The position numbers were made by a program, and so were the translations under genes. The notes below the pieces were generated by a model that made no database searches, had not been told where the DNA came from, and was given only the letters and a program-made list of their open reading frames with translations. Below are positions 19,011-43,700 of a stretch of DNA of 64,000 nt, piece after piece. Source of the stretch: an uncultured Gemmatimonadales bacterium (lineage in GTDB: Bacteria; Gemmatimonadota; Gemmatimonadetes; Gemmatimonadales; GWC2-71-9). Numbering within the stretch: position 1 is the stretch's first letter; each line of letters opens with the position of its first letter. Location of the stretch: contig CAWCFX010000001.1 of the NCBI GenBank assembly GCA_963795085.1, positions 832,001 through 896,000 on the forward strand, in the 5' to 3' direction.

Positions 19011-20012
19011 GTGATACCACCTCCTCCATCGAGCCCCATGGGCAGCATCGACGCAGCCGGTTCCACCGGCCCCGGGGTCATCGCGGCCTCCGAGACCATG
19101 CAGGCCGTGCTGCGGCAGTGCCGTCACATTGCCGTCACCCGGTATCCGGTCGCGCTGATCGGGCCGACGGGGGTGGGTAAGGGGCTACTGGCCCAGGCAA
19201 TGCACGCCATGAGCGGCTCGGCGCGGGGCCCCTTCCATATAGTGGGGGGCGGGGAGCTGACGCCTTCCCTGCTCCAGAGCGAGCTGTATGGCCACGAAGA
19301 AGGCGCCTTTACCGGGGCCAAGGGTAGGCGGCGCGGGCACTTCGAGCTGGCGGCCGGGGGCACCATCTTTCTCGATGAGATGCACCTGTGGAAACCCCGG
19401 GTCCAGGCGGCCATGCTCCGCGCCCTGGGAGAACGGGCCGTGATCCCGCTCGGGGCCGCCCGTTCCCTCCCCCTCACCTGCCGGTTCATCTTCGCCGCCA
19501 ACCAGCCGCTCGACGACCTGGTCAACGCCGGGATCCTGGTGAAGGATCTTCGTCACCGGATCGGCGAGTTCGAGATCCGGGTTCCGGGGCTGGCCGAGCG
19601 GCCGGGCGATATCATGCCGCTGGCCTATGCCCACCTCGCGCGGGTTGCGTCGGAGAATGGCTATTCCCCCGGTCTCCGGCTGGAGCCGCAGGTGGCGTGG
19701 CAGCTGATCTGGTACGCATGGCCGGGGAATGTCCGGGAGCTGCACAACGTGATCACCCACGCGGCCGTCAGCAGCGGAGGCGAGCCGGTGATACGGTTGC
19801 ATCACCTGCCGGCCAGGCTGCAGAGACCGCTGGTCCAGTTCGATGCGCTGGACAAGTCGGTGCGTCGGGAGATGGTGGGGTGGGCCTACCGGTTTGCCCA
19901 TGGCAGCCGGTTGGCGGCGGCTGACCTGGTGGGAGTGCATCCCCATACGATTGATTACCACGTCCGGCGGCATGGAGCCGGAGCCAGGGTTCCTGGAGCG
20001 GATGCCTGCTGA
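19011..20012 (+). CDS. Sigma-54 enhancer-binding protein lacking a sensory domain (bEBP1)
   Basis: GPTGVGKG, ELYGHEEGAFTGA, GGTIFLDE, WPGNVRELHN, C-terminal HTH. Confidence 0.9.
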   Translation: MIPPPPSSPMGSIDAAGSTGPGVIAASETMQAVLRQCRHIAVTRYPVALIGPTGVGKGLLAQAMHAMSGSARGPFHIVGGGELTPSLLQSELYGHEEGAFTGAKGRRRGHFELAAGGTIFLDEMHLWKPRVQAAMLRALGERAVIPLGAARSLPLTCRFIFAANQPLDDLVNAGILVKDLRHRIGEFEIRVPGLAERPGDIMPLAYAHLARVASENGYSPGLRLEPQVAWQLIWYAWPGNVRELHNVITHAAVSSGGEPVIRLHHLPARLQRPLVQFDALDKSVRREMVGWAYRFAHGSRLAAADLVGVHPHTIDYHVRRHGAGARVPGADAC

Positions 20013-20186
20013 CTTGCGTCACAAAGCCCGCTCCCTGGCCCCTTCACCAACCTCCACGCTGCCAACCACTTGCCCCGCTGCCAATCCGGCATTGTGATGG
20101 CAGGGCGACTCCTCTCCGCTGGCGAATCCGAGATACGAGGATCGGACGCAACAGGTTAGCGCTCCGTGGCGGGACCGCGCCCAATC

Positions 20187-20202
20187 CGGCATGTCCCCTG
20201 CT
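20187..20202 (+). promoter_or_regulatory. Sigma-54 -24/-12 promoter of rhs1
   Basis: cGGCATGtcccCTGCT (GG-N10-GC); GC 38 nt before ATG 20238. Confidence 0.7.
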
Positions 20203-20237
20203 TTTCCCCGGCCATCTCCTCCCATCCAGGATTGGCC

Positions 20238-23200
20238 ATGTTCCCTTCCCGCCGCTGGTTCGCGCTGGCCCTGCTGCCGCTCATGTTCTTTCTGCTCCCG
20301 TCGGAACCGGACGTGGAGGAGGAAACTGAAGAGGTGCCGGGCGGAGTGGAGGTAACCCCGGACGCGGGCGGGCCCATCTGACCCTGAGGCAAATACAAGC
20401 GGGCTGGCAGCCGGGTTCTGGGTGAAGAACACCCGAACAGTCACAACCACGTACACTCTGGCCTGCGGAACCGGCGGCGCAGCCACGTCCTGCGAAGTCG
20501 AGCCTACACAGGTAACGTTGGGCTATAATGAACTCACCGACATCAGTGTTACCTACGCAACCGGGGCGGCGGGGTCAGGTTCTCTGGTTCTGCGTGCGAC
20601 CGGAGCAGCGTCGGATACCGGGTACTATAACGTTGTATCCCTGGGGCAAGGATATCCCGGCGTGGTGCTGAAGAATCACAACGACACCAACCGGGACCGA
20701 TCGGGGTGCCTAATCGCAGGAGCGGGAGAAGGTGCGTGGCAATGTGGCGACCTGCTGGTGAGCCACAGCCTGCCGGGCTACACGACCATGGGCCGGGAGC
20801 GATCCTTGACCATGGTCTATACCTCAGCACAGGCAGTTCCCAAGCCCCTGGTTGCGGCCAGTGTCACCAACGGCGATATCTCCCTGCCGGTCAACGTATA
20901 TGCCGAGCTTCGTGTGGGGACAACCGGCGGCACACAGACGGTTCGTGCTACAGGGACGTTCACGGGCTGGAACTTCGATCCGAGCCCTCGGCAGATCGCC
21001 CTTACTTATGACGCCAGCGCCGACCCAACGGGTGCCTATCCGTTCACGCTGGTGATTCAGAATCAGTATCCGGGGACCTACAGTACGACCCGCACCGGCA
21101 CCTTGCTGGTCATCAATCGAAGCCAGAGCGAGTTCGGCGCCGGCTGGGCTCTCGCGGGGGTCGAGCGGCTCCACTTCGGGCAGCCGGTTGGCACCAGCAA
21201 CGGAGACATTTTGTGGGTCGGGGGAGACGGCTCGGCAAAGCTGTATGCCAAGCTAAACGCCACCACATGGGTAGCTCCGCTCGGCGCGTACCGCGATACC
21301 ATTGCCTACAACGCCGGCACCACCGAGTACACCCGGACGCTGCGGCACAAGATCCAGGTGGTTTACGACGCGATGGGGCGCCATGTCCGGACCATCAACC
21401 GCATGGAGCAGCCCACATACTTCTACTGGAACACCTCGACGGGGAAGCTCGACAGCGTCGTCGTTCCGCCGACCGGGCAGACGGGGACGCGCTATGCGCT
21501 CACGTATGACGGGAATGGGAACATTGACAGTATTGCCGATCCCGGCGGGCGAGCGCTCAATGTCACGGTAACGAGTGGCAATACGCTGGCGATCCGGGAT
21601 CCCGACCTGGTCACCACAACATTTACCTACGCGGGGACCTCCGGCAGAATGCTCACCAGGACCAACCGGCGCGGCTACCGAACCCGGTTCGAGTACGCCA
21701 ACAATCTGCGACTCACCAAGGTCCATGTTCCGGGTGGCGTTACTGGCGCGGATACCTCGGTCACGGAATTCAAGCCCTGGGATGAGAAGGGGCTGCCTGG
21801 CCAAGCTGCGGTCCAGGATTCTGCAGTGTACACCAAGATCTTCGGGCCGCGACTCAACGTGGCGGACGATGCCCGGTTCTGGGTGGATAAGTGGGGGGCG
21901 CCCACGAAGATCGTCAATGCGATCGGGGCCACTACACTTCTGGTGCGAGGTGATACCACGGTCCCCCAGCTGGTGACGAAAGTCACCTTCCCAAATGGGC
22001 GTATAGGGATCATGACCTATGACGCGCGCGGGAACCTGCTCGAGGGTCGGGACAGTACCTGGCACCTCGGCGCCACTGCCCGGGACTCTACACGACTCAC
22101 GACGTATCAGTACCTGGACGGGAACGCGCCAGATTCTCCGAGCCGGGTGGGTGACAGCTACAATCGGTATTCATACTACTGGTACAATAGCCTGGGACTT
22201 ACTGATTCCGTGAAGGACACCCGTAATCTCGTAACCGTTTTCGCTTACACGGGATCCGGTGCATTCCAGGGCCTGCTGAACAGCGTCACAGAGAAGGGCG
22301 TTACCGTGTGGCAGGAGAGCACCAGCGATACCATCGTTACCGACCTTGTCAATTCATTCACTTACCATCCGTTGGGAAATATCAAGACCGCCACCAGTCC
22401 CTCAGGCAATGTGACAGCATACGTGACCGACGGCTATGGCCGTACCGCCGAGATCTATGACCCCCTGGGAGGGAAGTCAAACTACGTGTATGACGCGTTG
22501 AACCGGACAGTGCGCAGCTATCAGCACACGCCGGTCCGCACGCCGCCCTTCACCGTGACCCAGAGTTGCCAGGCAAACCAACTGTTGTGCGCCGATTCGA
22601 CCTGGCCGTTCTCTCCGGCCCTTCCGGACTCTTTGGGCTCGATCTATAAGCTGGGGGCCATGACTCTGGATACCGTAATCGATCCCCGCAACGTCAAGCG
22701 GGCATTCGGCTACGATGCCCAGGGTCGGCAGCGGATCGAGCAGGATGAATTCGGATACCAGAAGATCGCGTTCTACGACCGTGCGGGGCTTCTCGATTCC
22801 ATTCTGACGCGGGACAGCATCAAGGTCCGGTTCAAGTACGACACCATTGGCCGCCGTACCTTCATGAGCTTCCCCCAGCGTGCCAGCCCCTTCACGAGCA
22901 GCGGAGACCAGACCGTCGTCCTGGGAGATACGGTCAGATATACCTATGACATCATGGGGAATGTCCTGACCGCCCAGAACCGCTGGAACAATGCGGCCCC
23001 GATTACCCGTACGTATTATGCGACAGGAGCTCTCAAGACTCAGCGCACCTCCTACGATTCACTCTACTTCGAATACGACCGCAACGGCCAACGCCGGCGG
23101 ATGATCATGAACTGGGGGAAGGATACGGTGGACTACAGTTACGGGACCACCGGGGACCTCCAGACCATTACCGCCCGGCTCGACACGATGACCACGGCCA

Positions 23201-24840
23201 GCACCACCCGGGTCTTCACCTTTTCCTGGGACAAACTGGGCCGGAGGACGAAGGTCGTTTACCCCGGCAGTATTGTGGTGACCCTGGCCTATGACAAGAA
23301 CGGCTCCCTGAGGCAAGTGAAGTCGGTAAACCCGGCAACGTCGCCCGCTACCGATAATCTGGACTTCGTCTGGCGGAACCGGGATGTTGATCCGGTGGGT
23401 CGCGTACTGCGGCAATCGGTGGTCTGTACCCAGTACAATCCCGATGCGGCGGTCGAAGCCCCGTGCGGCGACGGCACAACCTGGACGATCAACCGGTACA
23501 ACCGCCTCGGCATGCTGGTCTGGCAGTGGGCGGACAGCACGAGTGCCACACCGGCGGATTCCTTCGCCTATGATGCATCAGGCAACCGTCTCTTTCGGAA
23601 GGAGGGGTCCACCGGGGCCAGGACATGGTTCACCATGGTGGCGAACAGCAACCGGCTGGCCTACGACTCGACGGGTTCTACTCAACGGGTGGTGACCCAG
23701 TATCACAACAAGGAGGGGGCCCGGATCCTGGAGTGGCCCTCCGACAACACCCAGGCTGCGGTGGCCTTCTACAAGGGGTACTACTATGACGGGTTGGGCC
23801 GGATGAGCGGCTCGTTCTACGCCACCTGGAGCGGTTCCGACTTCTTCGAGCACTGGTCCGGCAACGACTGCACCTACGATGCCGACGGCCAGCTGGTGCT
23901 TCCCTGCGACAATGGATCGCCCCTGCTCTACTTTGACGGCAATAACGTGGTGGGCAACAGCCACGACTGGCGGTTCATCCAGGGCCCGGGTGTGGACGAT
24001 GTGTTGATGGCGGTCAAGCGGGACCCCGCCGGTGCATATTCCGGCTATTTCCGGCGTCTCCTGTTCATGGTAACTGATGGGACCGGCCGCCGCTACGCGG
24101 TTGGCGCTGCCGATGGGAGTCTGTCGACCGATGATGTCCAGACTTCAGGCTTGGGGGCTTGGCGCTTTAGCGGGGCGGTAACCAAGTCAAACACTTTCGG
24201 GGCTGCCCGGATGGAGAATGCGGACCTCCCGACGGTTTCCTATTTCCGGAACCGGTCGTACGACTCGCGCACCGGCCGCTGGATGCAGGAGGACCCCATA
24301 GGGCTGGCGGGGGGGATGAATTTGTATCAGTTTAATGGGAATAATCCGGTAGCCTACACCGATCCCTTCGGTCTGTGTCCTCCAAAGATGGATCCCAATA
24401 GTGCGAAGTGCTATGCATGGAACCAGCAACAGGTACATGAGGCCGAGAATATAATCGCGCATCAGAAAGCTCTTAAGAATCAACATGCTCTTGGCCGGGG
24501 CAGTATTGAGCCTATCGGAATTAATGCCTCTGAAATGGCTGACAGATGTCCAGCAGCCGATCCCAGGGCCGGTTGCACCGTGTTAAATAAAAATACAGGG
24601 ATAAGCTATCATCTGATAAACGCTGATCGTCACCCGGAGGCAATCAGTGGCATTCTAGTGCATGAGCGGCAGCACGAGCGCACAGGAGCTCTGAATGAAC
24701 CGTGTGCAGTTGCACGAGAAGCCAGCTACATGTACACAATGGCCCGGAAGGATCCAGCGGCTTTCAGGAACTACACTGGTTCACCCCAAAGTCGACAGCC
24801 AGCAACGCACACACAGAAAGTGAAAGGATGCGGCTTCTAA
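20238..24840 (+). CDS. Rhs/YD-repeat protein 1 with signal peptide and HExxH C-terminal tip; +1 frameshift near 20365-20378
   Basis: MFPSRRWFALALLP leader in another frame aligns with Rhs2 N-terminus; YD repeats; RSYDSRTGRWMQEDPIG..NPVAYTDPFGL; tip LVHERQH. Confidence 0.9.
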
Positions 24841-24860: not shown

Positions 24861-25526
24861 ATGCCACTGCTGGCCATTAGGAGGATGGAAATGCAATTCC
24901 AGAATGCCTTACGCGCGACTCTTGTGATGCAGCTGATATCCCTCGGAGCAACAAAGGCGCAGGAGCCAAGTGAGATCCAGTTACACGCGCTCACGGCTCA
25001 GCTCAGGGTCCACAATACTTGCATCGGCTCACCGAGCGTACACGATTCCACTATTGAGTTCTTTCCTAGTGTCCGATTCCTCGTTGGGACCTGTGTTGGC
25101 CAACACGGCAACATGTACAGTGTTCTCCTGGGAGAAGATGCAACAGCACTTTACCTGTTGGATTCTCCAAGTGGCTTCAGTTTTCTCATCAAAAGGCATA
25201 CTCCAATTGGTCTCGACAACAGCACTGTCGTGACTTATGCCCGCCTTGCGCTCACTATGCAGGGCGTCATGTCGGCCCGTGGACGGGTTGTACAGTCAGC
25301 CAGAGACTTGCCGGATTCCATAAGGTCAAGTCTGGTTCAGCGAGGGTTCCGGATATCGCCAAGTCATATTGTAGAGTTGGCACCCGGTCTCCTCAATGTC
25401 GGCCTGACCGTGGCCAATGACAATACAGTGGCGACTTTCTCGGTAGCGGTGAGCCTTCCCTCTGGGGAGGCGTGGGTGACAGAAAGATGGCGATCTACTT
25501 TCTGGCTCCCCGAGAAGTCACACTGA
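24861..25526 (+). CDS. Exported protein, putative immunity protein for Rhs1
   Basis: Immediately downstream of toxin tip, lower GC, signal-peptide-like N-terminus (TKA/QEP). Confidence 0.65.
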   Translation: MPLLAIRRMEMQFQNALRATLVMQLISLGATKAQEPSEIQLHALTAQLRVHNTCIGSPSVHDSTIEFFPSVRFLVGTCVGQHGNMYSVLLGEDATALYLLDSPSGFSFLIKRHTPIGLDNSTVVTYARLALTMQGVMSARGRVVQSARDLPDSIRSSLVQRGFRISPSHIVELAPGLLNVGLTVANDNTVATFSVAVSLPSGEAWVTERWRSTFWLPEKSH

Positions 25527-25924
25527 CCAGCCTTTCGTGGCGCTTGTGGGACATGGGCGAATTACCCGCCCCCAGACATACTTACTATAACGTCCGAGGT
25601 CGCGGCGAACTTAGAAGCTCTGAAGGATCTCAGATCAATAGGAGCAGCAACAGAGTTGGCGATGTCTGTCATGAATGCCACCGGATCTCGCAAGGACTCC
25701 CTTAGAAGAAACGGAGAGGCCCGCGGGATTGTGAGAGTCCGGGCAGGTCGGCGAAGAGGGGCGGCGGCTCGGTTCCTGGCGGACCGGGAACACGCCGACG
25801 GCCTACACGTTGAGCGCGGTGTTCTCGACAAAGGGCCTGCGGGTCCCGCGGGTCCAAGGTCCATACCGCCGAGGGGCCGAGCGGCTGCAACAATGTGGTG
25901 GACGCGCTTCTATATGGCGCCACG

Positions 25925-26506: not shown

Positions 26507-26522
26507 GGGCACGGCCCCTGCC
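26507..26522 (+). promoter_or_regulatory. Sigma-54 -24/-12 promoter of T2SS operon
   Basis: gGGCACGgcccCTGCc (GG-N10-GC); GC 37 nt before gspE ATG. Confidence 0.75.
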
Positions 26523-26556
26523 ATACCCTGCCGCGGCCACCACAAGGATCTCCCCC

Positions 26557-28068
26557 ATGACCACCCCCGGCCTCGAGACCCGGCTCCCGCTCGCCGAGTC
26601 CTTTGCCGCCGAGTACCTGAGCTACTATCGCATCCTGCCGCTGGAGATCGTGGACCAGCGGCTCCGGGTCGCCGTGGCCGGGGAGTCCAACCCCGATGCC
26701 CTGGAAGACCTGGAGCTGAGCTTCGGGCTTCCGCTCGAGCTGGTCCCGGTGGGCGACGACGAGATCCAGGACGCCATCCGGCGCACCTTCGCCGCCTCCG
26801 AAACGGTGGTCGAGCTGGTGCGGGACCTCGATGCCACGGCCGGCGTGACCGAGGCGGGCGAAGACTTCTTGACCGACGCCCGCGACCTGGCCAACCAGCC
26901 CCCGGTCATCCGCTTCGTCAACCTCCTGATTCGGGAAGCCCACGACGCCGCAGCCAGCGACGTCCACCTGGAAGCCACCCGCGACGGCCTCCGCGTCCGA
27001 CTCCGCCTGGACGGGGTGCTGACCGAGCTGCCCTCACCCCCACGAGGGCTCCAGGCGGCGGTCGTCTCCCGGATCAAGCTCCTCGCCGAGCTGGATATCG
27101 CCGAGCGAAGGCTGCCGCAGGACGGGCGGATCCGGATGCGGCTGGAAAGCCGGGAGCTGGACCTCCGGGTCTCCTCGGTGCCCACCCTCTTCGGGGAATC
27201 CGTCGTCCTCCGGCTGCTCGACCGGGGCGGCCGCCCCGTCACCCTCCCCGAGCTGGGAATGCCGGCGGCCATGCTGGAGCTGTTCACCCGGCTCTGCTCC
27301 AGGGCCCACGGGATCATCCTCTCCACCGGGCCCACCGGCAGCGGCAAGACCACCACCCTCTATACCGCCCTGGGACTACGCCACCCTGCCGCAGAGAAGA
27401 TCATCACGGTCGAGGACCCGGTGGAGTATCACTTGGCCGGCATCACCCAGGTCCCGGTGCACGCCCGGTCCGGGATGACCTTCGCCGCCTCGCTCCGGAG
27501 CATCCTGCGGCAGGATCCCGACGTGCTGATGGTGGGGGAGATGCGGGACGCCGAAACCGCGGCGATCGCGGTGCAGGCGGCAATGACGGGACACCTGGTC
27601 TTCTCCACCCTCCATACCAACGACGCGGTGAGTGCGCTGACCCGGCTGCTGGATCTGAAGGTCGAATCCTACATGATCGCCGCCACGCTGGAAGCGGTGC
27701 TGGCCCAGCGGCTGGTCCGGCGGATCTGCACGCAGTGCGTGGAGGAGTACCAGCCCGATCCGGCCATGGTCGCGCTGATCGCGGACGCAGGCCTGGCCCT
27801 GGCCACTCGTGGCACTCCCCCCCCGAGGCTGGTCCGGGGATCCGGCTGCGCGCACTGCCGCCAGACCGGGTACAGAGGCCGGGTCGGCATCTTCGAGCTG
27901 CTGGTGCTGAACGATGCCATCCGGCAGCAGCTCCTCGCCTCGGCCAGTCACGCCGATCTTCGGCGTCTATCCCAGAAGGAAGGACTGGTGACCCTCAAGC
28001 AGGACGGGTGGCTCAAGGTGAAGGCGGGGATCACGACCATCGAGGAGGTGCTGCGTGTCGCGGACTGA
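26557..28068 (+). CDS. gspE: Type II secretion ATPase
   Basis: GPTGSGKTT, TVEDPVE, LRQDPD, STLHTND, CxxC..CxxC zinc motif. Confidence 0.95.
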   Translation: MTTPGLETRLPLAESFAAEYLSYYRILPLEIVDQRLRVAVAGESNPDALEDLELSFGLPLELVPVGDDEIQDAIRRTFAASETVVELVRDLDATAGVTEAGEDFLTDARDLANQPPVIRFVNLLIREAHDAAASDVHLEATRDGLRVRLRLDGVLTELPSPPRGLQAAVVSRIKLLAELDIAERRLPQDGRIRMRLESRELDLRVSSVPTLFGESVVLRLLDRGGRPVTLPELGMPAAMLELFTRLCSRAHGIILSTGPTGSGKTTTLYTALGLRHPAAEKIITVEDPVEYHLAGITQVPVHARSGMTFAASLRSILRQDPDVLMVGEMRDAETAAIAVQAAMTGHLVFSTLHTNDAVSALTRLLDLKVESYMIAATLEAVLAQRLVRRICTQCVEEYQPDPAMVALIADAGLALATRGTPPPRLVRGSGCAHCRQTGYRGRVGIFELLVLNDAIRQQLLASASHADLRRLSQKEGLVTLKQDGWLKVKAGITTIEEVLRVAD

Positions 28069-33756: not shown

Positions 33757-35258
33757 CGGATCCGACGATGCTGGGAGTCGTTCCCCCTTCCCATACAGGG
33801 AAGGGGGTTAGGGGGTTAGGTCTGACCTGGCTGGTGATGCTTATCGGTTTCGGAGTCGCCCGGGCCCAGGACACCGCCTCCGTCCGCCCGGTCCAGGACA
33901 GCGTCATAATCCGGCTGGTGGATACCGACCTCCGGGCCGCCGTCCAGGCGCTGAGCCGGTACCTGCCCAAAACGGTACTGGCGGTGAACATCCCGGCCGT
34001 TCGCATCACCCTGGAGCCTCCCGGCCCCATCGCCAGTTCGGCGGTCGCGCCGCTCCTGCGGGGGCTGGTGGAGGCGTATGGTCTCCAGATGGTAGAGGAC
34101 TCGGCGTACTATCGGGTCGAGCCGCGGCCGCCGGTTGCGGCCCCGGCCGGCGGCCAGCCGGGGAGGCCGGCAGGGGCGGATGAGGTCCGGCTGTTTGTCC
34201 TGCGGCTCAAGCACGCGCGCGCGCCGGATGTTGCCGCCACGGTCAATCTTCTCTTCGGGGGCAGTGGTGAGTTCTCCGGCCGCCCGGGGCTGGCCAGCGG
34301 TACCCTGTCCGATGAGCTGCGCCGGCAGGGCGTGCGGCCGGAAGGAGCCCGGCCGGCTCCGCCGGGGGATGCCGCCGCCCGCCGGGCCGCCCTGACCGGC
34401 GCCGTGACCATCGTGCCCGATGAACTCACCAACTCTCTCCTGGTGCGGGCCTCCCGGGAGGACTTCGACGTGATGTCCCAGGCGGTGGAGCTGCTCGATA
34501 TTCGTCCCCTCCAGGTGCTGATCGAGGTGCTGATCGTCGAGTTCCGCAGCGACCGGACCTTCTCGCTGGGCAACAGCGTCCATGTCCCCCCGCAGCCGCT
34601 GGGGCGGGGGACCGGGGGAGGGGACCTTGTCAGTGGAGGGCTGGGCGATCTCATCATCCGGCTGATGAACCTGGGCAAGGCCGAGGTGGACGCCACCATC
34701 CGGATCGCGGCCACCCGGGGCGATGCCCAGATCGTCTCCCGTCCCGTGCTGCTGGCCTCCAATAACACAGAGGCCAGCTTCCTGGTCGGGTCGCAGCGGC
34801 CCTTCGTGCAGGTGAGCCGGTCGCTGCCGACCGATGCGCCGAGCCGGGACCAGGTGGTGCAGTACCGGGACGTGGGGACCAAGCTGACGGTCCTGCCGAC
34901 CATCAACCAGGACGGATATGTCTCGCTCCTGATCCAGCAGGAGATCAACCAGGCCACGGCGGAGCTGCAGTTCGATGCCCCGGTGATCTCCACCCGGGAA
35001 GCGCGGACCCAGGTCCTGGTACGGGACGGGCAGACCATCGTGATCGGGGGACTCCGGGACCGGCAACAGGACCGCAGCCGCTCCGGGATTCCGCTGCTCT
35101 CCGGGTTGCCGCTGATCGGCGGGCTCTTCGGCACCTCGAGCCGGCGGAACAACGAAACCGAGCTGTACATCTTCATCACGCCCCGGATCATTGCCTCGGA
35201 CGACGACGCCGACCGGCTGACGGAAGTCCGGATGCCGGACCCGGGGAGGCTCCGGTGA
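33750..35258 (+). CDS. gspD: T2SS secretin (short form)
   Basis: N domain LKHARA, PDELTNSLLV, QVLIEVLIVE, VRDGQTIVIGGL, IPLLSGLPLIGGLF, ELYIFITPRII. Confidence 0.93.
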   Translation: MVADPTMLGVVPPSHTGKGVRGLGLTWLVMLIGFGVARAQDTASVRPVQDSVIIRLVDTDLRAAVQALSRYLPKTVLAVNIPAVRITLEPPGPIASSAVAPLLRGLVEAYGLQMVEDSAYYRVEPRPPVAAPAGGQPGRPAGADEVRLFVLRLKHARAPDVAATVNLLFGGSGEFSGRPGLASGTLSDELRRQGVRPEGARPAPPGDAAARRAALTGAVTIVPDELTNSLLVRASREDFDVMSQAVELLDIRPLQVLIEVLIVEFRSDRTFSLGNSVHVPPQPLGRGTGGGDLVSGGLGDLIIRLMNLGKAEVDATIRIAATRGDAQIVSRPVLLASNNTEASFLVGSQRPFVQVSRSLPTDAPSRDQVVQYRDVGTKLTVLPTINQDGYVSLLIQQEINQATAELQFDAPVISTREARTQVLVRDGQTIVIGGLRDRQQDRSRSGIPLLSGLPLIGGLFGTSSRRNNETELYIFITPRIIASDDDADRLTEVRMPDPGRLR

Positions 35259-36241
35259 CGGCCCACGCTGTGGGAGATCAGGGGGAAACCATCATCGTCG
35301 GCGAGTCTCCCGCGATCCGCCGGGCGGTGCAGGTGGCCCGGATGTTTGCCCGGACGGCGCTGCCGGTCCTCATCACCGGCGAGACCGGGACCGGCAAGGA
35401 ACTGTTCGCGCAGGAGATCCACCGGTGGAGCGGCCGGCGGGGACCGCTGGTGGACGTGAACTGCGGGGCGTTGCCGCGGGACCTGGTGGAGGGGGAGCTG
35501 TTCGGGCACCGGCGGGGGGCGTACACCGGGGCCGCAACTGACACCAGCGGCCTGATTGCCCACTCCGATGGCGGCACCCTCTTCCTGGACGAGCTCTCCA
35601 GCCTCCCGGTGGAGGGGCAGGTAAAGTTGCTTCGGGCGATTGAGACGAGGGAAATCCGTCGGCTGGGCGATACTCTCAAGCGGCGGGTGGACTTCCGGCT
35701 CGTGTCAGCGGTGCATCACGGCCTGGCCGGCGAAGTTGCCTCTGGCCGGCTCCGGGCGGACCTCCTTCAGCGCCTGGCCGGTGTAGTCATCCACCTTCCA
35801 CCGCTGGTCGATCGCATTGGTGACATGGCGCTCCTGGCTCGCCATTTTCTTCGCCAGTTCCGGTGTACCCTCGGTTGCGGAGCCGATCTGGTGTTAGGTC
35901 AGTACGCCTGGCCTGGGAATGTCCGCGAGCTCAGGTCAGTGATCGAGCGGGCGATCGTGCTCTCATCGTCCACCACGGTCAGTTCGGAAGTACTCGTGGA
36001 AGCCATTGAACTGGGACCGGCTGGAACGCATTCAACGCGAGGGGGAGAGAGGAGTGTACGGAGTGCCCTGGCGCGAAAGCAACTCCTGGGTGCAGCCGAA
36101 CAGAATGGGTGGGATCCCCGCCGGCTGGCCGCCTCCCTGGGCGTAAGCCGTGCTACCCTCTATCGTCGCCTCCGGGCGCTGGGGGTTTCTCTGACACAAT
36201 GCCAGGCTCAAGGTCTCACCGAGTCTCACGAGACACGGTAG
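35255..36241 (+). CDS. Sigma-54 enhancer-binding protein lacking a sensory domain (bEBP2)
   Basis: GETGTGKE, ELFGHRRGAYTGA, GGTLFLDE, RADLLQRL, WPGNVREL, Fis-type HTH LGVSRATLYRRL; coupled to gspD. Confidence 0.93.
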   Translation: MTAHAVGDQGETIIVGESPAIRRAVQVARMFARTALPVLITGETGTGKELFAQEIHRWSGRRGPLVDVNCGALPRDLVEGELFGHRRGAYTGAATDTSGLIAHSDGGTLFLDELSSLPVEGQVKLLRAIETREIRRLGDTLKRRVDFRLVSAVHHGLAGEVASGRLRADLLQRLAGVVIHLPPLVDRIGDMALLARHFLRQFRCTLGCGADLVLGQYAWPGNVRELRSVIERAIVLSSSTTVSSEVLVEAIELGPAGTHSTRGGERSVRSALARKQLLGAAEQNGWDPRRLAASLGVSRATLYRRLRALGVSLTQCQAQGLTESHETR

Positions 36242-36316: not shown

Positions 36317-36332
36317 GGGCCTATGTCGTGCA
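36317..36332 (+). promoter_or_regulatory. Sigma-54 -24/-12 promoter of rhs2
   Basis: gGGCCTAtgtcGTGCA (GG-N10-GC); GC 37 nt before ATG 36367. Confidence 0.6.
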
Positions 36333-36366: not shown

Positions 36367-39300
36367 ATGTTTCTTTTCCGCCGTTGGACTGCGCTAATCG
36401 CACTTCCCCTGCTTTTCCTCGCCAGGGATCATCGTCTCTCGTTCCCGCCAGGCGCTGCTTCCGTGGCCGTAACCCCGGACAACAAGCCTCGAAGCGCGAC
36501 CGCCCACTCGACCGGGTGGAGCGAGGTGTTCACCGTCAAGAATACCGGAACTGTATCTGGCTCCTGGGACTTGTCCTGTACTTCTACGGGGCAGGTCACC
36601 TGCGGCACGGTGATCCCCGATGCGGTGGACCTTGATCCGAGCCAGACCACTAACGTCACCGTCAACTATTCCACGGGCAACCTGGACGCGACCGCGAAAG
36701 TAAAGCTGGTCGCGACCGGCCCTGCCGTGGACACCGGAAGCATAGCGCTCAATGTGGGCACTTCGGTGGTACGGATCGTCTCCCCTGGTGTCGACACGGT
36801 CACCAGCCGCATCGTGATCTCCAACCGGCAGCCGGTGGTGCGGGCCTTGTTTCTCCGGACTGCCGGTGCGGCGGCGGATACGACAGCGACAGTGCTCAAA
36901 TGGCGCGATGTGGATATCACGAATCTGGCCCGCCACAACCGGGGGTTGCTGGAGTGGGAGGTTGACTCGACTCGCTGGCTCGGGGTCGGGGATTCGGCGA
37001 AGATCACGATTATCTACAAAGCCGGGGGCATCACGACTACCGAGAACCGGTGGGCGGTGCTCTTAAATGACGACAAGCCGGTGATCGGATTCCAGGGAAT
37101 GCCGCTGGCGACGCTGAATGGCGGGTTCAGCTCCGGCTTTGGGCCGGGGTTCAGCGTGCAAGGCGCGGAGGTGGAAACCGGGATCGGCGCCATCCCCTAC
37201 GTGAGTATGGGTGTGTCGCGATCGGCGGGCCTGGTGTACTCCACCCGGACTTCCTATCCCCGGGCGCTGGTCAATGTGGATCTGGAAACACCCTGGCCGG
37301 CCGGCACGCCGACCCAGATCAAGCTCTACCTCTGGGATGCCGGGGTGAAAGTGGATTCCCTGGTCCTGGCCAGCACCAGTTGCGTGACCGGCGCGGTGAA
37401 GCGCTGTCGGGCGACGCTGCAAGGTGATTTCTCCGGCAGCACGTTCAGCACGCCGACCCGGAAGCGATTGGCGGTGGAGGCGCTGGTGACGTCCGGCGGG
37501 ACCACCAAGAGTGCCATGGACACCGTCGAGGTGATGCTGGTGGATCGGCGAGCCACCCAGTACGGCAGCGGCTGGTGGCCGAGCGGGATCTCGAAGCTGG
37601 TGGCCGCGGGGCAGGACCGCATTCTGGTGGGACCGTCGGGCAGCGCCACCATCTTCCGGGGCAACGGGGACAGCCTCTACCTTGCCCCGCCGGGGAGTTT
37701 CACAACCCTGGTCAAGACGGGCACCGGCTGGGAGATCCGGCCCCGGGGCAGCACGGCGCGGGTCTACTTTGACACCAATGGCCGGCTGGTCGCGACGGCG
37801 GATAACAACGGCAATCGGGACTCAGTCTTCTACGCCAGTACCACGGACACGGTCACGTCACTCAAGGATCCGATCGGGAAGACCATCACCTTCACCTACA
37901 CCAGCGGCCGGTTGAGCAAGATCACCACCCTGACCGGCGGGGCGGCGCGGGATGTCTTCGTCAACATCGATGGGACCAGTAACCAGCTGACTTACGCCCG
38001 GCTGCCCTATACCGTCAGCTCCAATACGGCGCTTCGCGACACAGTCCGCTTTACCTATCAGAGCTACCCCGGCACCAAAACCCAGCTGATCACCCACCGC
38101 ATCGGGCTGATCGGCGATACCACCCGTTTGGTCTATGACTCGACGTTCAAGCGCCGGCCGGTCCAGGTCTTCCTGCCCCGGGTCCAGGACGAAACCGGCA
38201 GCAATGTCACGCCGGACCTCGAGTATTTTGCCTACGAGCGGCAGGGGTGGGGGACGCTGCGCTCGCTGGACAGCGTCTATGTCGAAGTGAAAGATCCGCG
38301 GGATCACTGGACCCGATCATTGCTCAACCGCTGGGCCCAGGCCCGGACGACCTGGGACGCCTTGGGGACTCTCGGCCGGACGGAGTACGATGCCGATGGC
38401 TTCGTGCTCTGGTCGGAGGGGGCGGTGGCGGACTCCGGGCGCGTATACACTCGCTATGACACCCTCAAAAGAGTGGTGCGGACCTACACCATTCTCACCG
38501 GCGGTACCATCGTCAACGGCGACAGCCTGATCTACGACAGCAATCACCGGGTGATCAAGAGAATCAACCCGTGGGCCGAGCGGGACACCATGGGGTACAC
38601 CGCCAACGGCAATCTGACCTACCACATGGATGCCGACAACAAGATCACCACAACGCTGTACAACTCCACCGGCACTGTCGATAAGATCATCCTGTCCGGG
38701 GACACCAGTTTTATCCAGCACACCTACGACAACCCCTTCGGGAACCGAAGCAGGGTAGAGCGGATCTCAGGCGACTCGACACTCCTTCTGTCCGCATTCT
38801 ATTATGACCAGTACGGACGGGACTCGGTGAGCGAAAGTAAGATCGTGTCTCAGGTCTCGAGTGGTACCACCAACTGGCAATGGCGACGGAGCCTGGTGTT
38901 TCTCTCTCCCCTCAACCAGGTGGATTCCACTATCCTGTTGCGGACCGACAACTGTGCCGACCCCTGCCTCACCCCGCCGAGCTGGCCGTCGCTGCCGGAC
39001 ACTACAAAGGCCCAGCATGTGCGCTATCGTCGGGACCGCGGCGGCCGGGATTCCCTCCGGCTCAATGACCGGAACCAGGCGACCCGCTACGTTCACGACC
39101 GGCTGGGGCGGCTACTGGCTCGCTATCCCGATTCCACCAGCGTTCGCGATTCGATGGTGTATGACGTGGCGGGGAACCTCAAGAAGACCATCACCCGCCG
39201 CGGGCACACCATTGAGAATACCTACGATTCACGAAACCGCACCACTCTGACTACCCTCCCCGGCATCGGGGACCGGACCCGGGTCTACGGCGGGCCCGCG

Positions 39301-41304
39301 GGCCAGCTGACCCGGATCTACGATGCCAGTCCGGTGGACTCGATCGGCGGGGTCAACCGGGAGATGCGCTGGGGTTATGACAACCGGGGCTTCCTCACGG
39401 CTGACACCAGCTATACCAGCACGACCGCTCGATCAACTACCTACGCCTATGACAGGTATGGCCGCGACACCTCGATGACCGATCCGTCCGGGATATGGCG
39501 GACATCCTATTCCCAAAAGTTCGGCGGCCTCCCGATCATGCAGGTGACGCCATTCGGCGATAGTGTCATATACCTTTATGACGAACAGCGGCGCCCCCAA
39601 AGCGTCACCGTTCGCAGCTCGGGGCCTGCCCAGGTGAACCGGTACGCCTTCAACGACCGGGGCCGGCTGGACAGTGTGGCGCATTCGGTCGCCACATCGC
39701 CCAATGCCTTTACACCCCTGACCTACTTCGCCGGGACGGCGGGCGATCCCTCGCTTCCCGGCGTGGCGCCGAGCTACGCAGAGCAGCATGGCGCGGCGGC
39801 GAGCGTGGAGACCTTGACGGACTCCGTTGGCTATGATGGATGGGGGCGGGTCTTGAGCTGGGTCGGGAAGCGGGGTGGGACTGTCGTCGGGCGAGATACC
39901 TTTGCCTTTGACCGGATGGGCAATATCAAGACCACGGCCGGTGCGGAGACCTACAACGCCTTGGGCCGTCTGACGTCGCGTACCGCTGGCGGGTGGACGT
40001 ACACCTACTATTATGATGCTGCGGGCAATCCGGATAGCGTCAACCAGGTCAGCGGAGGCACGACGCATCGCTGGCGCTATGGGTGGGACGTCCTGAACCG
40101 GCTGGAGAGTGTCCGGCGGAACGGGACCCTGATCGCCCGGTACAGCTACGACGTCCTGGGCCGGCGGATCGCCAAGCGGGTGTACAGCAGTGCGACCGGC
40201 GGTGCGGCGGACTACACCCGGTTCGTCTATCATGGCAGCCATGTCGCCTTCGAGGCCGATTCGGGGAGCGGGTCGGGGATCAAGATCACCCGGCGCTACG
40301 TCTGGGGCATGGGAACCGACGACCTGGTTGCGGTGCGGGACTCGACCTCGGGCACGGCGGTGCACTACTACGCGGTCAAGGACAAGCTGGGCAGCGTCCG
40401 CGGCCTGGTAAAGCGAGACGGGACCTGGCAGTACTCGGAGCGGTTCGGGCCCTACGGGGCGTCGGTGGAGCTCTCGGGGACGGACCCGGGGCACCGCTAC
40501 CGGTGGACCGGGCGGGAGTATGACGCGGAGACGGGGTTCTACTACTTCCGGGCGCGGTACTACGAGCCCGCGGCGCGGCGGTTTATCAGCGAGGATCCGA
40601 TCGGGTATGCGGGGGGCGGGAATCTGTATGCGTATGTCCGCGGCGCGGTCTTGGAAGCGCGCGATCCGTCGGGATTGATGATGCAATACGACCAAGCTGC
40701 CTGGTCGCAGTACTATGGATGGATGATGGGTCTCTTGGGGCGGGATAAAGGAGATGGGTGGTGGGACCAAGTTCAGGCAGACATCAGCATGATGGATAAA
40801 CTGGCCGCCGGTGAGGTCGAGTGGATTGCAACAATCCAGAACGCGGATGGCTCAACATCTGAGGTGAATTGCCGCAGTATGCAAGGCGCCTGCGATGACT
40901 GGCTGGACAACCAGACCCAACCACTTTCAGAGGAGGAGCGCAAAGGAATGGGAAATATGTGTACCTCGCGCCCCGATTCCTGCGACAAGATTCGTGTGTA
41001 CCGCCACACTGGGAACGTTTCCATAACACTCGGCCATCTCATTGCACTCCGGCCGGATCATCATAACGATCGCTTCACCCTGGTGCACGAAACGTATCAT
41101 GTCTTTCAGTTTGAGGACTGGGGCGGCTTCAAGTACTATGCGCGCGGGCTGTGGACGCAGTTCAAGAATCTCTTTGCTGATCAGTATCACTGGACACCCG
41201 GAAAGGCATTTAGCCGGTACGGTATGGAACAGCAAGCAGAGATCGTTGCCTTCTGCGTTGTCCGCCGAGATTCGGAGGCCTGCGCAATTTCCCCCTTCTT
41301 CTAG
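36367..41304 (+). CDS. Rhs/YD-repeat protein 2 with signal peptide and HExxH C-terminal tip
   Basis: MFLFRRWTALIALPLLFLA leader; YD repeats; WTGREYDAETGFYYFRARYY..EDPIG..DPSGL; tip LVHETYHVFQ..MEQQAE. Confidence 0.93.
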   Translation: MFLFRRWTALIALPLLFLARDHRLSFPPGAASVAVTPDNKPRSATAHSTGWSEVFTVKNTGTVSGSWDLSCTSTGQVTCGTVIPDAVDLDPSQTTNVTVNYSTGNLDATAKVKLVATGPAVDTGSIALNVGTSVVRIVSPGVDTVTSRIVISNRQPVVRALFLRTAGAAADTTATVLKWRDVDITNLARHNRGLLEWEVDSTRWLGVGDSAKITIIYKAGGITTTENRWAVLLNDDKPVIGFQGMPLATLNGGFSSGFGPGFSVQGAEVETGIGAIPYVSMGVSRSAGLVYSTRTSYPRALVNVDLETPWPAGTPTQIKLYLWDAGVKVDSLVLASTSCVTGAVKRCRATLQGDFSGSTFSTPTRKRLAVEALVTSGGTTKSAMDTVEVMLVDRRATQYGSGWWPSGISKLVAAGQDRILVGPSGSATIFRGNGDSLYLAPPGSFTTLVKTGTGWEIRPRGSTARVYFDTNGRLVATADNNGNRDSVFYASTTDTVTSLKDPIGKTITFTYTSGRLSKITTLTGGAARDVFVNIDGTSNQLTYARLPYTVSSNTALRDTVRFTYQSYPGTKTQLITHRIGLIGDTTRLVYDSTFKRRPVQVFLPRVQDETGSNVTPDLEYFAYERQGWGTLRSLDSVYVEVKDPRDHWTRSLLNRWAQARTTWDALGTLGRTEYDADGFVLWSEGAVADSGRVYTRYDTLKRVVRTYTILTGGTIVNGDSLIYDSNHRVIKRINPWAERDTMGYTANGNLTYHMDADNKITTTLYNSTGTVDKIILSGDTSFIQHTYDNPFGNRSRVERISGDSTLLLSAFYYDQYGRDSVSESKIVSQVSSGTTNWQWRRSLVFLSPLNQVDSTILLRTDNCADPCLTPPSWPSLPDTTKAQHVRYRRDRGGRDSLRLNDRNQATRYVHDRLGRLLARYPDSTSVRDSMVYDVAGNLKKTITRRGHTIENTYDSRNRTTLTTLPGIGDRTRVYGGPAGQLTRIYDASPVDSIGGVNREMRWGYDNRGFLTADTSYTSTTARSTTYAYDRYGRDTSMTDPSGIWRTSYSQKFGGLPIMQVTPFGDSVIYLYDEQRRPQSVTVRSSGPAQVNRYAFNDRGRLDSVAHSVATSPNAFTPLTYFAGTAGDPSLPGVAPSYAEQHGAAASVETLTDSVGYDGWGRVLSWVGKRGGTVVGRDTFAFDRMGNIKTTAGAETYNALGRLTSRTAGGWTYTYYYDAAGNPDSVNQVSGGTTHRWRYGWDVLNRLESVRRNGTLIARYSYDVLGRRIAKRVYSSATGGAADYTRFVYHGSHVAFEADSGSGSGIKITRRYVWGMGTDDLVAVRDSTSGTAVHYYAVKDKLGSVRGLVKRDGTWQYSERFGPYGASVELSGTDPGHRYRWTGREYDAETGFYYFRARYYEPAARRFISEDPIGYAGGGNLYAYVRGAVLEARDPSGLMMQYDQAAWSQYYGWMMGLLGRDKGDGWWDQVQADISMMDKLAAGEVEWIATIQNADGSTSEVNCRSMQGACDDWLDNQTQPLSEEERKGMGNMCTSRPDSCDKIRVYRHTGNVSITLGHLIALRPDHHNDRFTLVHETYHVFQFEDWGGFKYYARGLWTQFKNLFADQYHWTPGKAFSRYGMEQQAEIVAFCVVRRDSEACAISPFF

Positions 41305-41312: not shown

Positions 41313-41717
41313 ATGGTGAGAGTAGAATGGTTGAATCTCAGACTTCTTGTGATGGTTCTGCTGATCGGCTGCCCTAAACCACTCGCGGTGTGGGTGCCAC
41401 CGGATTCGACGAGGTCGCATCTCGTGTTTCGAATCGGCAACCATGTCGGTAGCAACAAGGTGCGACAATTCACTACATTCCTTGTGCGTGAGTGCACGAC
41501 CGAGGACACCCCCGACAATGCCCTATGGCTCCTCTACCTGGACGACTTTGAGCGCCGATCTTATCCAACATCAATTGTGTACGGACTCGTTCCCCCTGGA
41601 TACCGTGAAAGGGCACCAGCCCGGACACTGGGCACGGGCTGCCATATAGCATCTGCTGATGGGGCTTCGGCCAAGTTCACTATTGGCCGTGATGGCCAGG
41701 TTTCGGGGGCGCCGTAG
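41313..41717 (+). CDS. Lipoprotein, putative immunity protein for Rhs2
   Basis: RBS GGAGG, lipobox LIGC, 8 bp after toxin stop. Confidence 0.72.
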   Translation: MVRVEWLNLRLLVMVLLIGCPKPLAVWVPPDSTRSHLVFRIGNHVGSNKVRQFTTFLVRECTTEDTPDNALWLLYLDDFERRSYPTSIVYGLVPPGYRERAPARTLGTGCHIASADGASAKFTIGRDGQVSGAP

Positions 41718-41795: not shown

Positions 41796-41999
41796 TGGTC
41801 TGGCCCCGATTTCGTGGACACGCGGGGTTAGTCGGCGCGGCCGGCCAGCCGCCTCGAAAGCCACGGGCTAAGAAAGCCCAGGGCGGAATGCTGCCGCTCG
41901 TGATTGTACCACCTCAGCTAGTCCGGGAACGCGGAATCGGCCGCTGTCCGAGTGCGCCAGCGCCTCTGATCCACCAGTTCCCGCTTGAGCGTGGCGAAG
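41796..41999 (-). mobile_element. IS3-family right-end remnant, copy A
   Basis: TG..CCCCGATTTCGTGGACAC end; minus-strand [21 protein letters not shown] with internal stop. Confidence 0.8.
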
Positions 42000-42115
42000 C
42001 TTGTCCCAAAGTCGCCACGGCGGCCCATGCTTGCGGTGACCCGTGGGCGCCAGCGCCGCCAGCCTGATCCAAAGAGAGACTCGAATCGCCACATCCACAC
42101 TCATCAGCGGAATCT

Positions 42116-42971
42116 GGAGTATGACGCGGAGACGGGGTTCTATTACTTCCGGGCGCGGTACTACGAGCCCGCGGCGCGGCGGTTTATCAGCGAGGATCCG
42201 ATCGGGTATGCGGGGGCCGCGAATCTCTATGCTTACGTGGACGGCGATGTAATGGAGGCGCGGGATCCGAGTGGGTTGTTGAAGGATGTCGCGCATTTTG
42301 GGGCGGCTGGACCGGATAATTGGTGGGATCCGAATGCCTGGTTGAACTTCGTGTCAAACGGAGGACATGGTCTACGCGAACTGACATCGTGGCTGAACAG
42401 CGGATTTGCCGCTGCCGCCGATCTCGGTGAATCGTCTACTCATTCTACTGTTGTTACAATTACGAGGGGAGACGGCACCTCGACTGTAATAACCCTCCCG
42501 GGCTCCGTGACGGGTTGCCCCGGTGGGCGTTGTCCTGGCGGGTTAAGCCTTGATCAATACGCTGCCGTGTTGGGCAGCTTCAAGCACATGACGGCCCGGG
42601 CCGCGACTATGGTGGGGAGTCTCCTTAACGAGGGGCAGATTCGGAGCGGGTATTCCTCCGCCTATGTGAACGGGAATAAGGGCGCGGATGGATGGGTCAG
42701 CAATGCCAAGCCAGGGACGGTGTATGTAAATCGAAACCAGGTTACAAGCACATATGTCGGCGATGTCTTCTCTAAAACACCACAGGAGCTGGCACAAATA
42801 CTAATGCACGAAAGCTACCACGTGAATCAATTTAGGAGGCATGGGATCACGTCTTCAAGCAGCCTGAGCGATGCTGTCGGCGCCCGGGGCGCTTACGGGG
42901 CATACTGGGAAGACGACGCTGACGTATTCGCATGTGCTAATCTCGTCGGTGGGTTTGATTGGCAATGCTAA
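42116..42971 (+). pseudogene. Orphan Rhs C-terminal module with HExxH tip
   Basis: Begins abruptly at EYDAETGFYYFRARYY; DPSGL; LMHESYHVNQ..WEDDAD; no credible start. Confidence 0.85.
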
Positions 42972-43447
42972 TACGGCCTCGTAGGCACTTATCACAGTGT
43001 GTTGCCGTCTGGATGGTCGTCCTCGTTGCAGCCTCCTGCTTCCGTAACGCAGATGTGAAGGAAGTTAAAGATCCTGCCGAAGTTGTCTGCGACTCGATTG
43101 GTGTCGAATGGGCTGAACAGCATACCCCCGGGTTATCACCGCGCAGGTCGGTGCCGCGGGAGGTATGGAGAACGGAATTGCGAATGATAGGTCTTCGGCA
43201 CTGGATAGATATTTATCGCTCCCGGCATCAGTGTCGTTTGCCTGATCATATCGCTGAACTGGGGCCGGAGGATCCCGCCGAGCCCACCCTTGCCCCCTTC
43301 GAGCGCTTCTACCTGGATGGATGGGGAAGGCAGTTTCTCTACAAGCGGGTGGGGACTGGAATGGAGCTCAGGTCTGCCGGGGCGGACGGCCAGATGGAGA
43401 CGCCCGATGACATGATATTCTCCTGGGCGCCACAAGACGGGCGGTGA
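42959..43447 (+). CDS. Lipoprotein, putative immunity protein with GspG-like C-terminal domain
   Basis: Lipobox AASC; DGWGRQFLY..ELRSAGADGQMETPDDM; overlaps orphan stop. Confidence 0.7.
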   Translation: MAMLIRPRRHLSQCVAVWMVVLVAASCFRNADVKEVKDPAEVVCDSIGVEWAEQHTPGLSPRRSVPREVWRTELRMIGLRHWIDIYRSRHQCRLPDHIAELGPEDPAEPTLAPFERFYLDGWGRQFLYKRVGTGMELRSAGADGQMETPDDMIFSWAPQDGR

Positions 43448-43462
43448 TGCAGCGTGCGATAG

Positions 43463-43700
43463 TGGTCTTGCCCCGATTTCGTGGACACCTGGGGTTAGGC
43501 GGCGCGACCGGCGAGCCGCGCCTCGAAGGTCACCGGGCTGAGGTAGCCCAAGGCGGAATGCTGCTCGTGGTTGTACCACCTCAGCTAGTCCGGGAACGCT
43601 AACTCGGTCGCTGTCCGAGTGCGCCAGCGCCTCTGGCCCACCAGTTCCCGCTTGAGCGTGGCGAAGAAGCTTTCCACCACCGCGTTGTCCCAGCAGTCGT
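43463..43700 (-). mobile_element. IS3-family right-end remnant, copy B
   Basis: Same end motif as copy A; minus-strand [28 protein letters not shown]. Confidence 0.85.

Follow-up and report, generated by a model that had tools for sequence, protein, structure and literature searches.

The route by which signal-peptide Rhs toxins traverse the diderm outer membrane has yet to be proven, and a locus of a soil Gemmatimonadota bacterium offers a compact genetic unit for that question: a type II secretion system (T2SS; gsp) operon that appears to end in the activator gene of a neighboring rhs gene, in an arrangement conserved across the phylum. Does this T2SS export the Rhs proteins encoded beside it? 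The locus lies in a window of 64,000 nucleotides (nt), the whole stretch of DNA analyzed here (G000:C1:832001-896000), within a genome of 3.89 Mb (G000; six contigs, 93% complete). Genes were called from Pfam matches, lists of open reading frames (ORFs) and translations, together with a fold search for one protein of 158 amino acids (aa). All genes of the locus are on the plus strand, in the order of a first bacterial enhancer-binding protein gene (bEBP1), rhs1, a gene for an exported-type protein, gspE-G-F-H-I-J-K-L-M-C-D, a second activator gene (bEBP2), rhs2, a lipoprotein gene, an orphan rhs tip and a second lipoprotein gene. The original prediction, made from the letters of the window, had given the same order, which Pfam, the ORF lists and the fold search confirmed. 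With recurrences in dozens of species, such an arrangement far exceeds what chance would give, and the locus probably encodes polymorphic Rhs toxins served by a T2SS of their own.

Linkage of gsp, rhs and activator genes in related genomes

Two sets of relatives were compared, with record titles of Gemmatimonadota or Gemmatimonadales metagenome-assembled genomes (MAGs). The first comprised 60 related genomes plus G000 (61 genomes), and the second came from a secretin-alignment scan of one genome per species, which yielded 280 relatives and from which the best 80 loci were kept; nearly all of these best 80 of 280 are titled Gemmatimonadota and three carry other titles. The recurring order in the fetched regions was bEBP, gspE to gspD, bEBP, rhs, often with a second rhs upstream. 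A bEBP gene started within 400 nt of the secretin gene in 56 of the 64 loci with at least 1.5 kb of downstream sequence, and Rhs lay downstream of the secretin in 33 of the 44 with at least 6 kb; upstream of gspE, where at least 2.5 kb was available, a bEBP was present in 19/30 loci and Rhs in 12/30. Some Rhs signature was found in 55 of the 80 loci and in 36 of the 39 that span at least 15 kb (the exceptions being L067, L081 and L125, the last with an orphan tip that scored just under the cut-off). This interleaved order is kept despite secretin identities of 50-70% and Rhs N-domain identities of 20-55%. Among the 61 genomes, the Rhs N-domain and the secretin were encoded close together on the same contigs in G009, G022, G023, G037 (twice) and G052. 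Linkage of Rhs, T2SS and bEBP genes is strongly conserved across the phylum, and because the same arrangement recurs in this way, the T2SS is the likely export route for signal-peptide Rhs proteins. Other cargo was considered at the loci without downstream Rhs and rejected: 13 of the 15 ORFs scanned were housekeeping genes at the island border, and those of L081 and L122 had no Pfam family.

In a FastTree phylogeny of 93 secretins, all 59 rows with Rhs within 20 kb fell into one clade of 85 (Shimodaira-Hasegawa-like support, 99), of which the remaining 26 rows are mostly short or split loci. Outside the clade were seven longer canonical GspD rows and a PilQ-like row, with no Rhs and no bEBP nearby. 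Five canonical T2SS loci, fetched over 12-20 kb as controls, were ordered G-F-K-D-E or D-E-F-G and had neither bEBP nor Rhs in that span; one genome (G023) has both kinds of T2SS. Of the 61 genomes, 13 had an in-clade secretin, and Rhs cores were present in all 13 of these versus 15 of the 48 others; the latter 15 include an unpublished genome (G018), on which nothing here rests. The original prediction had envisaged that homologous gsp operons in relatives would be linked to rhs and bEBP genes and that a distinct GspD clade would emerge. Both expectations were borne out, the Rhs-linked secretins forming a clade of their own apart from canonical GspD without Rhs or bEBP neighbors.

Two variations in layout were also seen. 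In L054 a second pair of secretin and bEBP genes (L054:19005-21224) lies approximately 8 kb downstream of the first, behind an rhs gene. In most relatives a bEBP gene stands directly upstream of gspE, so that in the window the stretch of rhs1 and its partner gene has the look of an insertion separating bEBP1 from gspE.

The secretion machine and its sigma-54 activators

The T2SS gene set appears complete: besides E, F, G, K, M and D, it comprises three minor pseudopilins, an L-like gene and a minimal C. Pfam matches were clear for GspE, F, G, K, M and D, and the three small N_methyl-bearing genes were named H, I and J by order and size alone. Most genes from gspF to bEBP2 overlap by 4 nt in the ORF maps, including gspD and bEBP2. 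The AlphaFold2 (AF2) model of the 158-aa protein (mean pLDDT of 86.9 from 68 homologues) has a transmembrane helix, a proline-rich linker and a beta domain, and its top Foldseek match was the HR domain of GspC from enterotoxigenic Escherichia coli in complex with GspD (3oss_C; probability of 1.00, TM-score of 0.74 on the target, root mean square deviation of 2.4), followed by PilP and LspC. A sequence profile also placed 3oss_C first among PDB entries, weakly (E = 0.099). The protein is accordingly modeled as a minimal GspC with an HR domain and without a PDZ domain. The secretin profile matched T2SS GspD best in the PDB (5wq7; E = 4.1e-57), with PilQ behind (E = 1.9e-41), and its N terminus aligned to crystal structures of GspD N0-N2; at 502 aa it is shorter than the 627-650 aa of solved GspD chains. 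The locus shares its component set with the canonical T2SS (Gsp/Xcp/Pul), whose GspD structures (5wq7 and 5wq8) are the closest solved relatives of its secretin. It differs from the canonical system in that the secretin is ∼130-150 aa shorter, GspC consists of a transmembrane helix and an HR domain, and the operon has a bEBP gene fused to it; in related genomes, canonical T2SS loci have another gene order and no Rhs. This gsp cluster is the only T2SS-type cluster in the genome. Other GspE-like ATPases are encoded beside PilT/PilC-type genes or alone, a second secretin is 31% identical over its C-terminal part only, and the single prepilin peptidase gene (Peptidase_A24; G000:C1:468661) is located away from the locus.

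PspF and HrpR/HrpS are sensor-less AAA+ activators of sigma-54 without an N-terminal regulatory domain, and HrpR/HrpS control a secretion system. The two activators of the locus have no sensory domain either, since both start almost directly with the AAA+ domain, and RpoN is encoded in the genome. Like HrpR/HrpS, they are bEBP paralogues in one locus that would control a secretion machine and its cargo; unlike PspF and HrpR/HrpS, no partner regulator was identified for them. A simple scan for TGGCAC-N5-TTGCW with up to two mismatches was uninformative (18 matches versus 25.4 expected) and was superseded by a comparative scan with a positioned motif, YGGCAY-N5-YTGCH. Of 42 loci, 16 carried the latter ahead of gspE, mostly at a distance of 42-52 nt from the start (mean of 0.2 and maximum of 1 in shuffled sequences), and in the spacer between bEBP and rhs it occurred in 9 of 54 loci (shuffled: mean of 0.6, maximum of 4). 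In the window the motif precedes gspE (26507) and the rhs1 leader (20187), and in all three candidate promoters the -12 GC lies 36-37 nt from the ATG. The putative rhs activator appears to be the last gene of the gsp operon, because the bEBP abuts the secretin stop (at most 30 nt from stop to start) in 53 of the 56 loci with an adjoining bEBP, with an overlap in 37. From this position of bEBP2 we infer a sigma-54 cascade in which the machine would be made first and the cargo second, the order of events being read from gene order alone.

Rhs proteins, their proposed export and competing explanations

Both rhs1 and rhs2 encode RHS repeats (PF05593) and an Rhs-associated core (TIGR03696); the genome has three matches to this core (rhs1, rhs2 and the orphan), all in the window. 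The rhs1 body consists of a partial immunoglobulin (Ig) module, a plug-like beta region, RHS repeats, a core ending in DPFGL and a tip of ∼170 aa. In rhs2 a leader is followed by an Ig-like module, a low-confidence region, a plug-like beta domain, the RHS shell, a core ending in DPSGL and a tip of ∼205 aa. The AF2 model of rhs2 residues 1-460 (61 sequences; pLDDT of 72) contains a confident Ig-like domain at residues 30-130 and a confident beta region from residue 270, with low confidence between residues 133 and 265. Foldseek searches with this model returned generic Ig/ASH-type matches only (HYDIN, RbmA and VesC, with teneurin-4 at rank 42) and no functional lead. An HExxH motif is present in the translations of all three tips. 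A Pfam scan of the tips and small proteins gave no significant match; weak family leads for the tips were eCIS_core (0.15 in Pfam) and DUF6782 (0.11), and the rhs2 tip had Atlas neighbors at 0.93, in clusters with 11-16% eCIS_core members. A tip query matched other loci over its first ∼30 residues only, i.e., tips differ between loci, and G+C content drops from ∼0.70 to 0.56-0.60 over the rhs tips and the small genes that follow.

Further rhs genes were noted in related genomes. Orphan Rhs core ends are arrayed at a spacing of ∼1-1.5 kb directly downstream of the secretin in G037:C2:578345-591778 (L025) and G045:C2:1243175-1294973, with 21 core matches in G037 and 23 in G045. An Rhs homologue in a Longimicrobiales-titled MAG (L111:16529 onward) has more than 10 tandem Ig-like modules of the form ‘VTPDG...NTG...C...C’ before the shell. 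Elsewhere in G000, a stand-alone ORF (G000:C1:338797-339267) shares 29% identity with the HExxH tip of rhs2.

The original prediction held that both Rhs proteins begin with Sec-like leaders. In rhs2, which is intact from the ATG at 36367, the leader (MFLFRRW...) is in frame and has a basic n-region followed by a hydrophobic stretch, without a canonical AxA site. For rhs1 the leader can be read only across a frameshift: it starts (MFPSRRW...) in a separate ORF at 20238-20381, and the body is open from 20356 in another frame. Comparison with intact homologues places the shift, of one base, within a G/C run that follows directly on the first ‘VTPD’ motif, and it may be either an assembly error in that run or the mark of a pseudogene; the public contigs give no coverage of the site (bins 19911-20810). 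In homologues the Rhs N terminus is basic and then hydrophobic, in many cases with an AxA-Q ending, and one to many Ig-like modules with a conserved cysteine pair follow the leader. A signal-peptide heuristic of our own was passed by 66 of 73 Rhs N termini (not all distinct, as some contigs were fetched twice), by 69/81 secretins and 57/59 GspK sequences as positive controls, and by 1/54 GspE, 1/55 GspF and 15/111 bEBP sequences as negative controls. Signal-peptide-like N termini appear to be the rule in this Rhs family.

The three genes behind the tips encode exported-type proteins, namely, a signal-peptide-like protein of 221 aa and lipoproteins of 134 and 162 aa. In L127 a tip 38% identical to that of rhs2 is followed by a homologue of the 134-aa lipoprotein with 29% identity, so that tip and putative immunity gene appear to co-vary there; a complex prediction for the rhs2 tip and the 134-aa lipoprotein scored 0.00 and gave no verdict. 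Relatives of the 162-aa lipoprotein come after Rhs tips in L125 and L126 (L126:15263-15532), and in L125:2-1533 (minus strand) a true gspG, an orphan HExxH tip and a 162-aa-like gene stand in a row. This family is a candidate for either an immunity protein or an adaptor. L125 lacks gspG at its normal site, between gspE and gspF.

The original prediction had noted that the Rhs proteins lack recognizable PAAR and VgrG domains and that the window has no genes of a type VI secretion system (T6SS); neither Rhs protein had a Pfam match to PAAR or VgrG, and the genome, at 93% completeness, yielded no TssC sheath gene. Among the 61 genomes TssC was present in 4, and among the 28 with Rhs cores in 3. 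As for a TpsB route, the genome yielded two weak ShlB-type matches only, in ORFs of ∼890 aa with a BamA/TamA-like look far from the locus, and these were rejected.

Rhs export through the neighboring T2SS is plausible, if unproven, and may be pictured as follows. The upstream sensor-less activator would turn on the gsp operon from a -24/-12 promoter, and the second activator, as last gsp cistron, would then turn on the downstream rhs promoter, so that the machine precedes its cargo. The Rhs precursor would pass the inner membrane via Sec and fold in the periplasm into a closed shell around the metallopeptidase-like tip, with disulfide-bonded Ig-like modules at its N terminus, while exported immunity proteins (lipoproteins and signal-peptide proteins) would shield the envelope of the producer. 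The pseudopilus would drive the shell out through the short secretin; outside, the Ig-like modules would probably bind target cells and the released tip would attack the target envelope. A more specific proposal, that the locus represents a distinct Gemmatimonadota T2SS subtype (short secretin, minimal GspC and operon-fused activator) specialized in exporting Rhs shells of 160-200 kDa and wired as a machine-first sigma-54 cascade, is in our judgment an even call.

Several points weigh against export of Rhs by this T2SS. Full-length Rhs ORFs occur in six relatives in which no in-clade secretin was found (G013, G030, G031, G044, G049 and G057); two of these are near complete (G044, 98%; G049, 100%) and gave only a weak secretin match (E of ∼1e-19 to 1e-20, in a frame of 730-780 aa), and a third, G031, has rhs and two bEBP genes beside a gspE fragment. 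The cluster cannot be called exclusive to Rhs in G000, because it is the only T2SS of the genome. Within the window, rhs1 as assembled is frameshifted near 20362-20381, the leaders of rhs1 and rhs2 have n- and h-regions and no canonical AxA cleavage site, the sigma-54 contact loop of bEBP2 reads GAYTGA instead of the canonical GAFTGA, and the candidate promoter of rhs2 is degenerate. Rhs genes in relatives were detected by tblastn with the window's own proteins as the only queries, and, the relatives being kin, the counts overstate independence, with many loci cut by contig ends.

Some of these points would also fit a co-inherited island without a transport link, in which Rhs proteins pass the inner membrane via Sec and are then kept in the envelope or set free in vesicles, by lysis or over another outer-membrane route, other proteins are the cargo of the T2SS, and the activators tie the modules together transcriptionally only. 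The full-length signal-peptide-type Rhs of G044, G049 and other relatives without an in-clade secretin and the gspE remnant beside the intact rhs of G031 favor it, as does the presence of one T2SS in the genome, which presumably serves other substrates too; lysis-type release is known for large Rhs-containing Tc toxins, as described in the accessible text of PMC10847048. Against it stand the persistence of the interleaved order at the sequence divergence given above, the position of the rhs activator as last gsp cistron in 53/56 loci, and the occurrence of Rhs in 13/13 genomes with this T2SS type and at 0/7 canonical T2SS loci of the same taxonomic order. We consider an island of this kind unlikely.

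Less credible still is a type IV filament device, in which the pseudopilus would carry Rhs or hand it over for delivery on contact, or in which Rhs would influence filament dynamics, the role proposed for the Bdellovibrio YD-repeat protein Bd0109. GspG-like genes do recur beside Rhs tips (in the window as the 162-aa lipoprotein, in L125 as the row of gspG, tip and 162-aa-like gene), linkage of Rhs and gspG is also described in Xanthomonas and Ralstonia in the part of the preprint seen (10.1101/2025.05.08.652813), and Bd0109, by the description in PMC3818213, is linked to pilus dynamics and tied to pilus extrusion. The Rhs leaders, however, lack the prepilin motif G-F/M-x-x-x-E; polymorphic tips, orphan arrays and adjoining exported proteins are typical of toxins; and the gene set and the closest solved secretin relatives are of the T2SS type, so that such a device seems improbable. 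We likewise give little credence to the view that the system is not an interbacterial weapon, with the HExxH tips as secreted peptidases directed at eukaryotic or other prey or serving nutrient release and the small exported neighbors as chaperones or inhibitors that prevent self-damage in transit: the motif in all three tips, the weak family leads named above and the lack of a known target speak for it, and the variable tips behind a conserved DPxGL core, the orphan tip arrays of G037 and G045 (21 and 23 core matches) and the co-variation in L127 speak against it.

The idea that a T2SS exports Rhs proteins has precedent, and the original prediction's statement that no characterized example exists did not hold. 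Bcn-A of Xanthomonas perforans, a 1,398-aa Rhs-family bacteriocin, loses activity in an xpsD T2SS mutant (PMC7259588, in part). By its description Bcn-A resembles the proteins studied here as a large Rhs/YD-repeat protein with a downstream immunity gene (a candidate one in the window); it differs in using the general Xps system encoded elsewhere, and the accessible text reports no dedicated gsp operon or sigma-54 activators. A 2025 preprint, in the part seen, predicts export by T2SS rather than T6SS for two gspG-linked Rhs families, XRhs F VIII of Xanthomonas and RRhs F II of Ralstonia, and states that T2SS export ‘has not been functionally confirmed’ (10.1101/2025.05.08.652813). By description, these families share with our locus the presence of GspG-like genes beside Rhs tips. 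Unlike them, with gspG alone linked according to the preprint, the locus has a whole E-to-D operon and two activators interleaved with rhs, in another phylum. In the literature searched, which excluded most subscription journals, no description was found of the interleaving of a gsp operon with genes for Rhs and bEBP, or of such a system in Gemmatimonadota. A dedicated, activator-coupled T2SS subtype for Rhs was not found in print.

The label ‘T2SS’ as used for toxins by Zhang and colleagues reportedly stands for signal-peptide-dependent general secretion. In the portion seen of that survey (Zhang et al. 2012; PMC3482391), rows of toxin domains that include RHS repeats name ‘T2SS’ among the routes of export. 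Those toxins and WapA of Bacillus subtilis (PMC10433427) combine RHS repeats with an N-terminal signal peptide, much as the proteins here do with their signal-peptide-like leaders; unlike here, the accessible text describes no outer-membrane machine linked to them. T6SS Rhs effectors with PAAR/VgrG, such as Tse5 (PMC10684867, in part), share the RHS shell, the DPxGL core end, the polymorphic tip, an adjoining immunity gene (here a candidate) and orphan tips. They differ from the Rhs proteins of this locus, for which no PAAR/VgrG match and no sheath gene were found and which have a Sec-like leader, cysteine-containing Ig-like modules and exported immunity candidates. If the proposed export by T2SS is true, the role of the T2SS would widen from enzyme export to interbacterial antagonism, and Rhs toxins would have a second dedicated outer-membrane route beside the T6SS. 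It would also raise the structural question of how a closed shell of ∼160 kDa passes through a secretin shorter than those studied.

Feature coordinates and neighboring genes

The features of the locus are collected in Table 1.

Table 1. Genes and candidate promoters of the gsp-rhs locus, in window coordinates
Feature	Position	Strand	Evidence and remarks
bEBP1	19011..20012	+	Pfam Sigma54_activat 4.2e-44, AAA_lid_14; AAA+ from residue 24; GAFTGA loop; no N-terminal sensory domain
Candidate sigma-54 promoter of rhs1, GG-N10-GC type	20187..20202	+	Motif scan; -12 GC 37 nt before ATG 20238
rhs1 leader ORF, signal-peptide-like start	20238..20381	+	Ends in stop, out of frame with body; compared with homologue N termini
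rhs1 body	20356/20422..24840	+	Pfam RHS_repeat; TIGR03696 core 1.1e-15; translation
221-aa protein, signal-peptide-like N terminus, candidate immunity protein for rhs1 tip	24861..25526	+	Translation; no Pfam family; role suggested by position
Candidate sigma-54 promoter of gsp operon	26507..26522	+	Comparative motif scan; -12 GC 36 nt before gspE ATG
gspE ATPase	26557..28068	+	Pfam T2SSE 3.2e-128, MshEN
gspG major pseudopilin	28055..28534	+	Pfam T2SSG 9.3e-39, N_methyl
gspF platform protein (start approximate)	28516..29712	+	Pfam T2SSF 4.8e-46, two stretches
Three minor pseudopilins (H-, I-, J-like)	29709-29978, 29975-30328, 30325-30852	+	N_methyl motif each; 4-nt overlaps
gspK	30849..31724	+	Pfam T2SSK_1st 3.3e-12
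gspL-like gene	31731..32708	+	Weak PilN match 8.5e-4; position between gspK and gspM
gspM	32666..33283	+	Pfam T2SSM_b 5.4e-12
Putative minimal GspC, 158 aa	33280..33756	+	AF2 model, Foldseek, sequence profile
Short GspD secretin, 502 aa	33750..35258	+	Pfam Secretin 1.8e-44, Secretin_N; profile versus PDB
bEBP2, last gsp-operon cistron	35255..36241	+	Pfam Sigma54_activat 9.5e-57, HTH_8; no sensory domain; GAYTGA loop; Fis-type HTH
Degenerate candidate sigma-54 promoter of rhs2, GG-N10-GC	36318..36332	+	Read by eye; fails strict motif; -12 GC 36 nt before ATG 36367
rhs2	36367..41304	+	Pfam; TIGR03696 1.2e-21; AF2 of residues 1-460
134-aa lipoprotein, lipobox LLIGC, candidate immunity protein for rhs2 tip	41313..41717	+	Translation; homologue behind related tip in L127
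Orphan rhs core end and HExxH tip	41985..42971	+	TIGR03696 2.3e-18; translation
162-aa lipoprotein, GspG-like C terminus, candidate immunity or accessory protein	42959..43447	+	Translation; Pfam T2SSG 0.0016, below curated cut-off

Between the 221-aa gene and gspE, ∼1 kb (25527-26556) contains no convincing ORF and has a lower G+C content at its start. Three soil-metagenome DNA runs, all from one study, contain small shares of the sequence, and there was no RNA run among the matches. Just upstream of the locus, on the minus strand, are genes for an M6 (InhA-like) peptidase with a B-repeat domain and for a Big_2/RCC1-repeat protein (10766-13066 and 15480-17360), both possible ordinary substrates of the T2SS. 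Behind the island, a small ORF (46385-46783; ‘LLDTNILIALL...’) has by eye the look of a PIN/VapC-type toxin and adjoins an ORF (47635-48546) with a weak match to the Rv0078B antitoxin.

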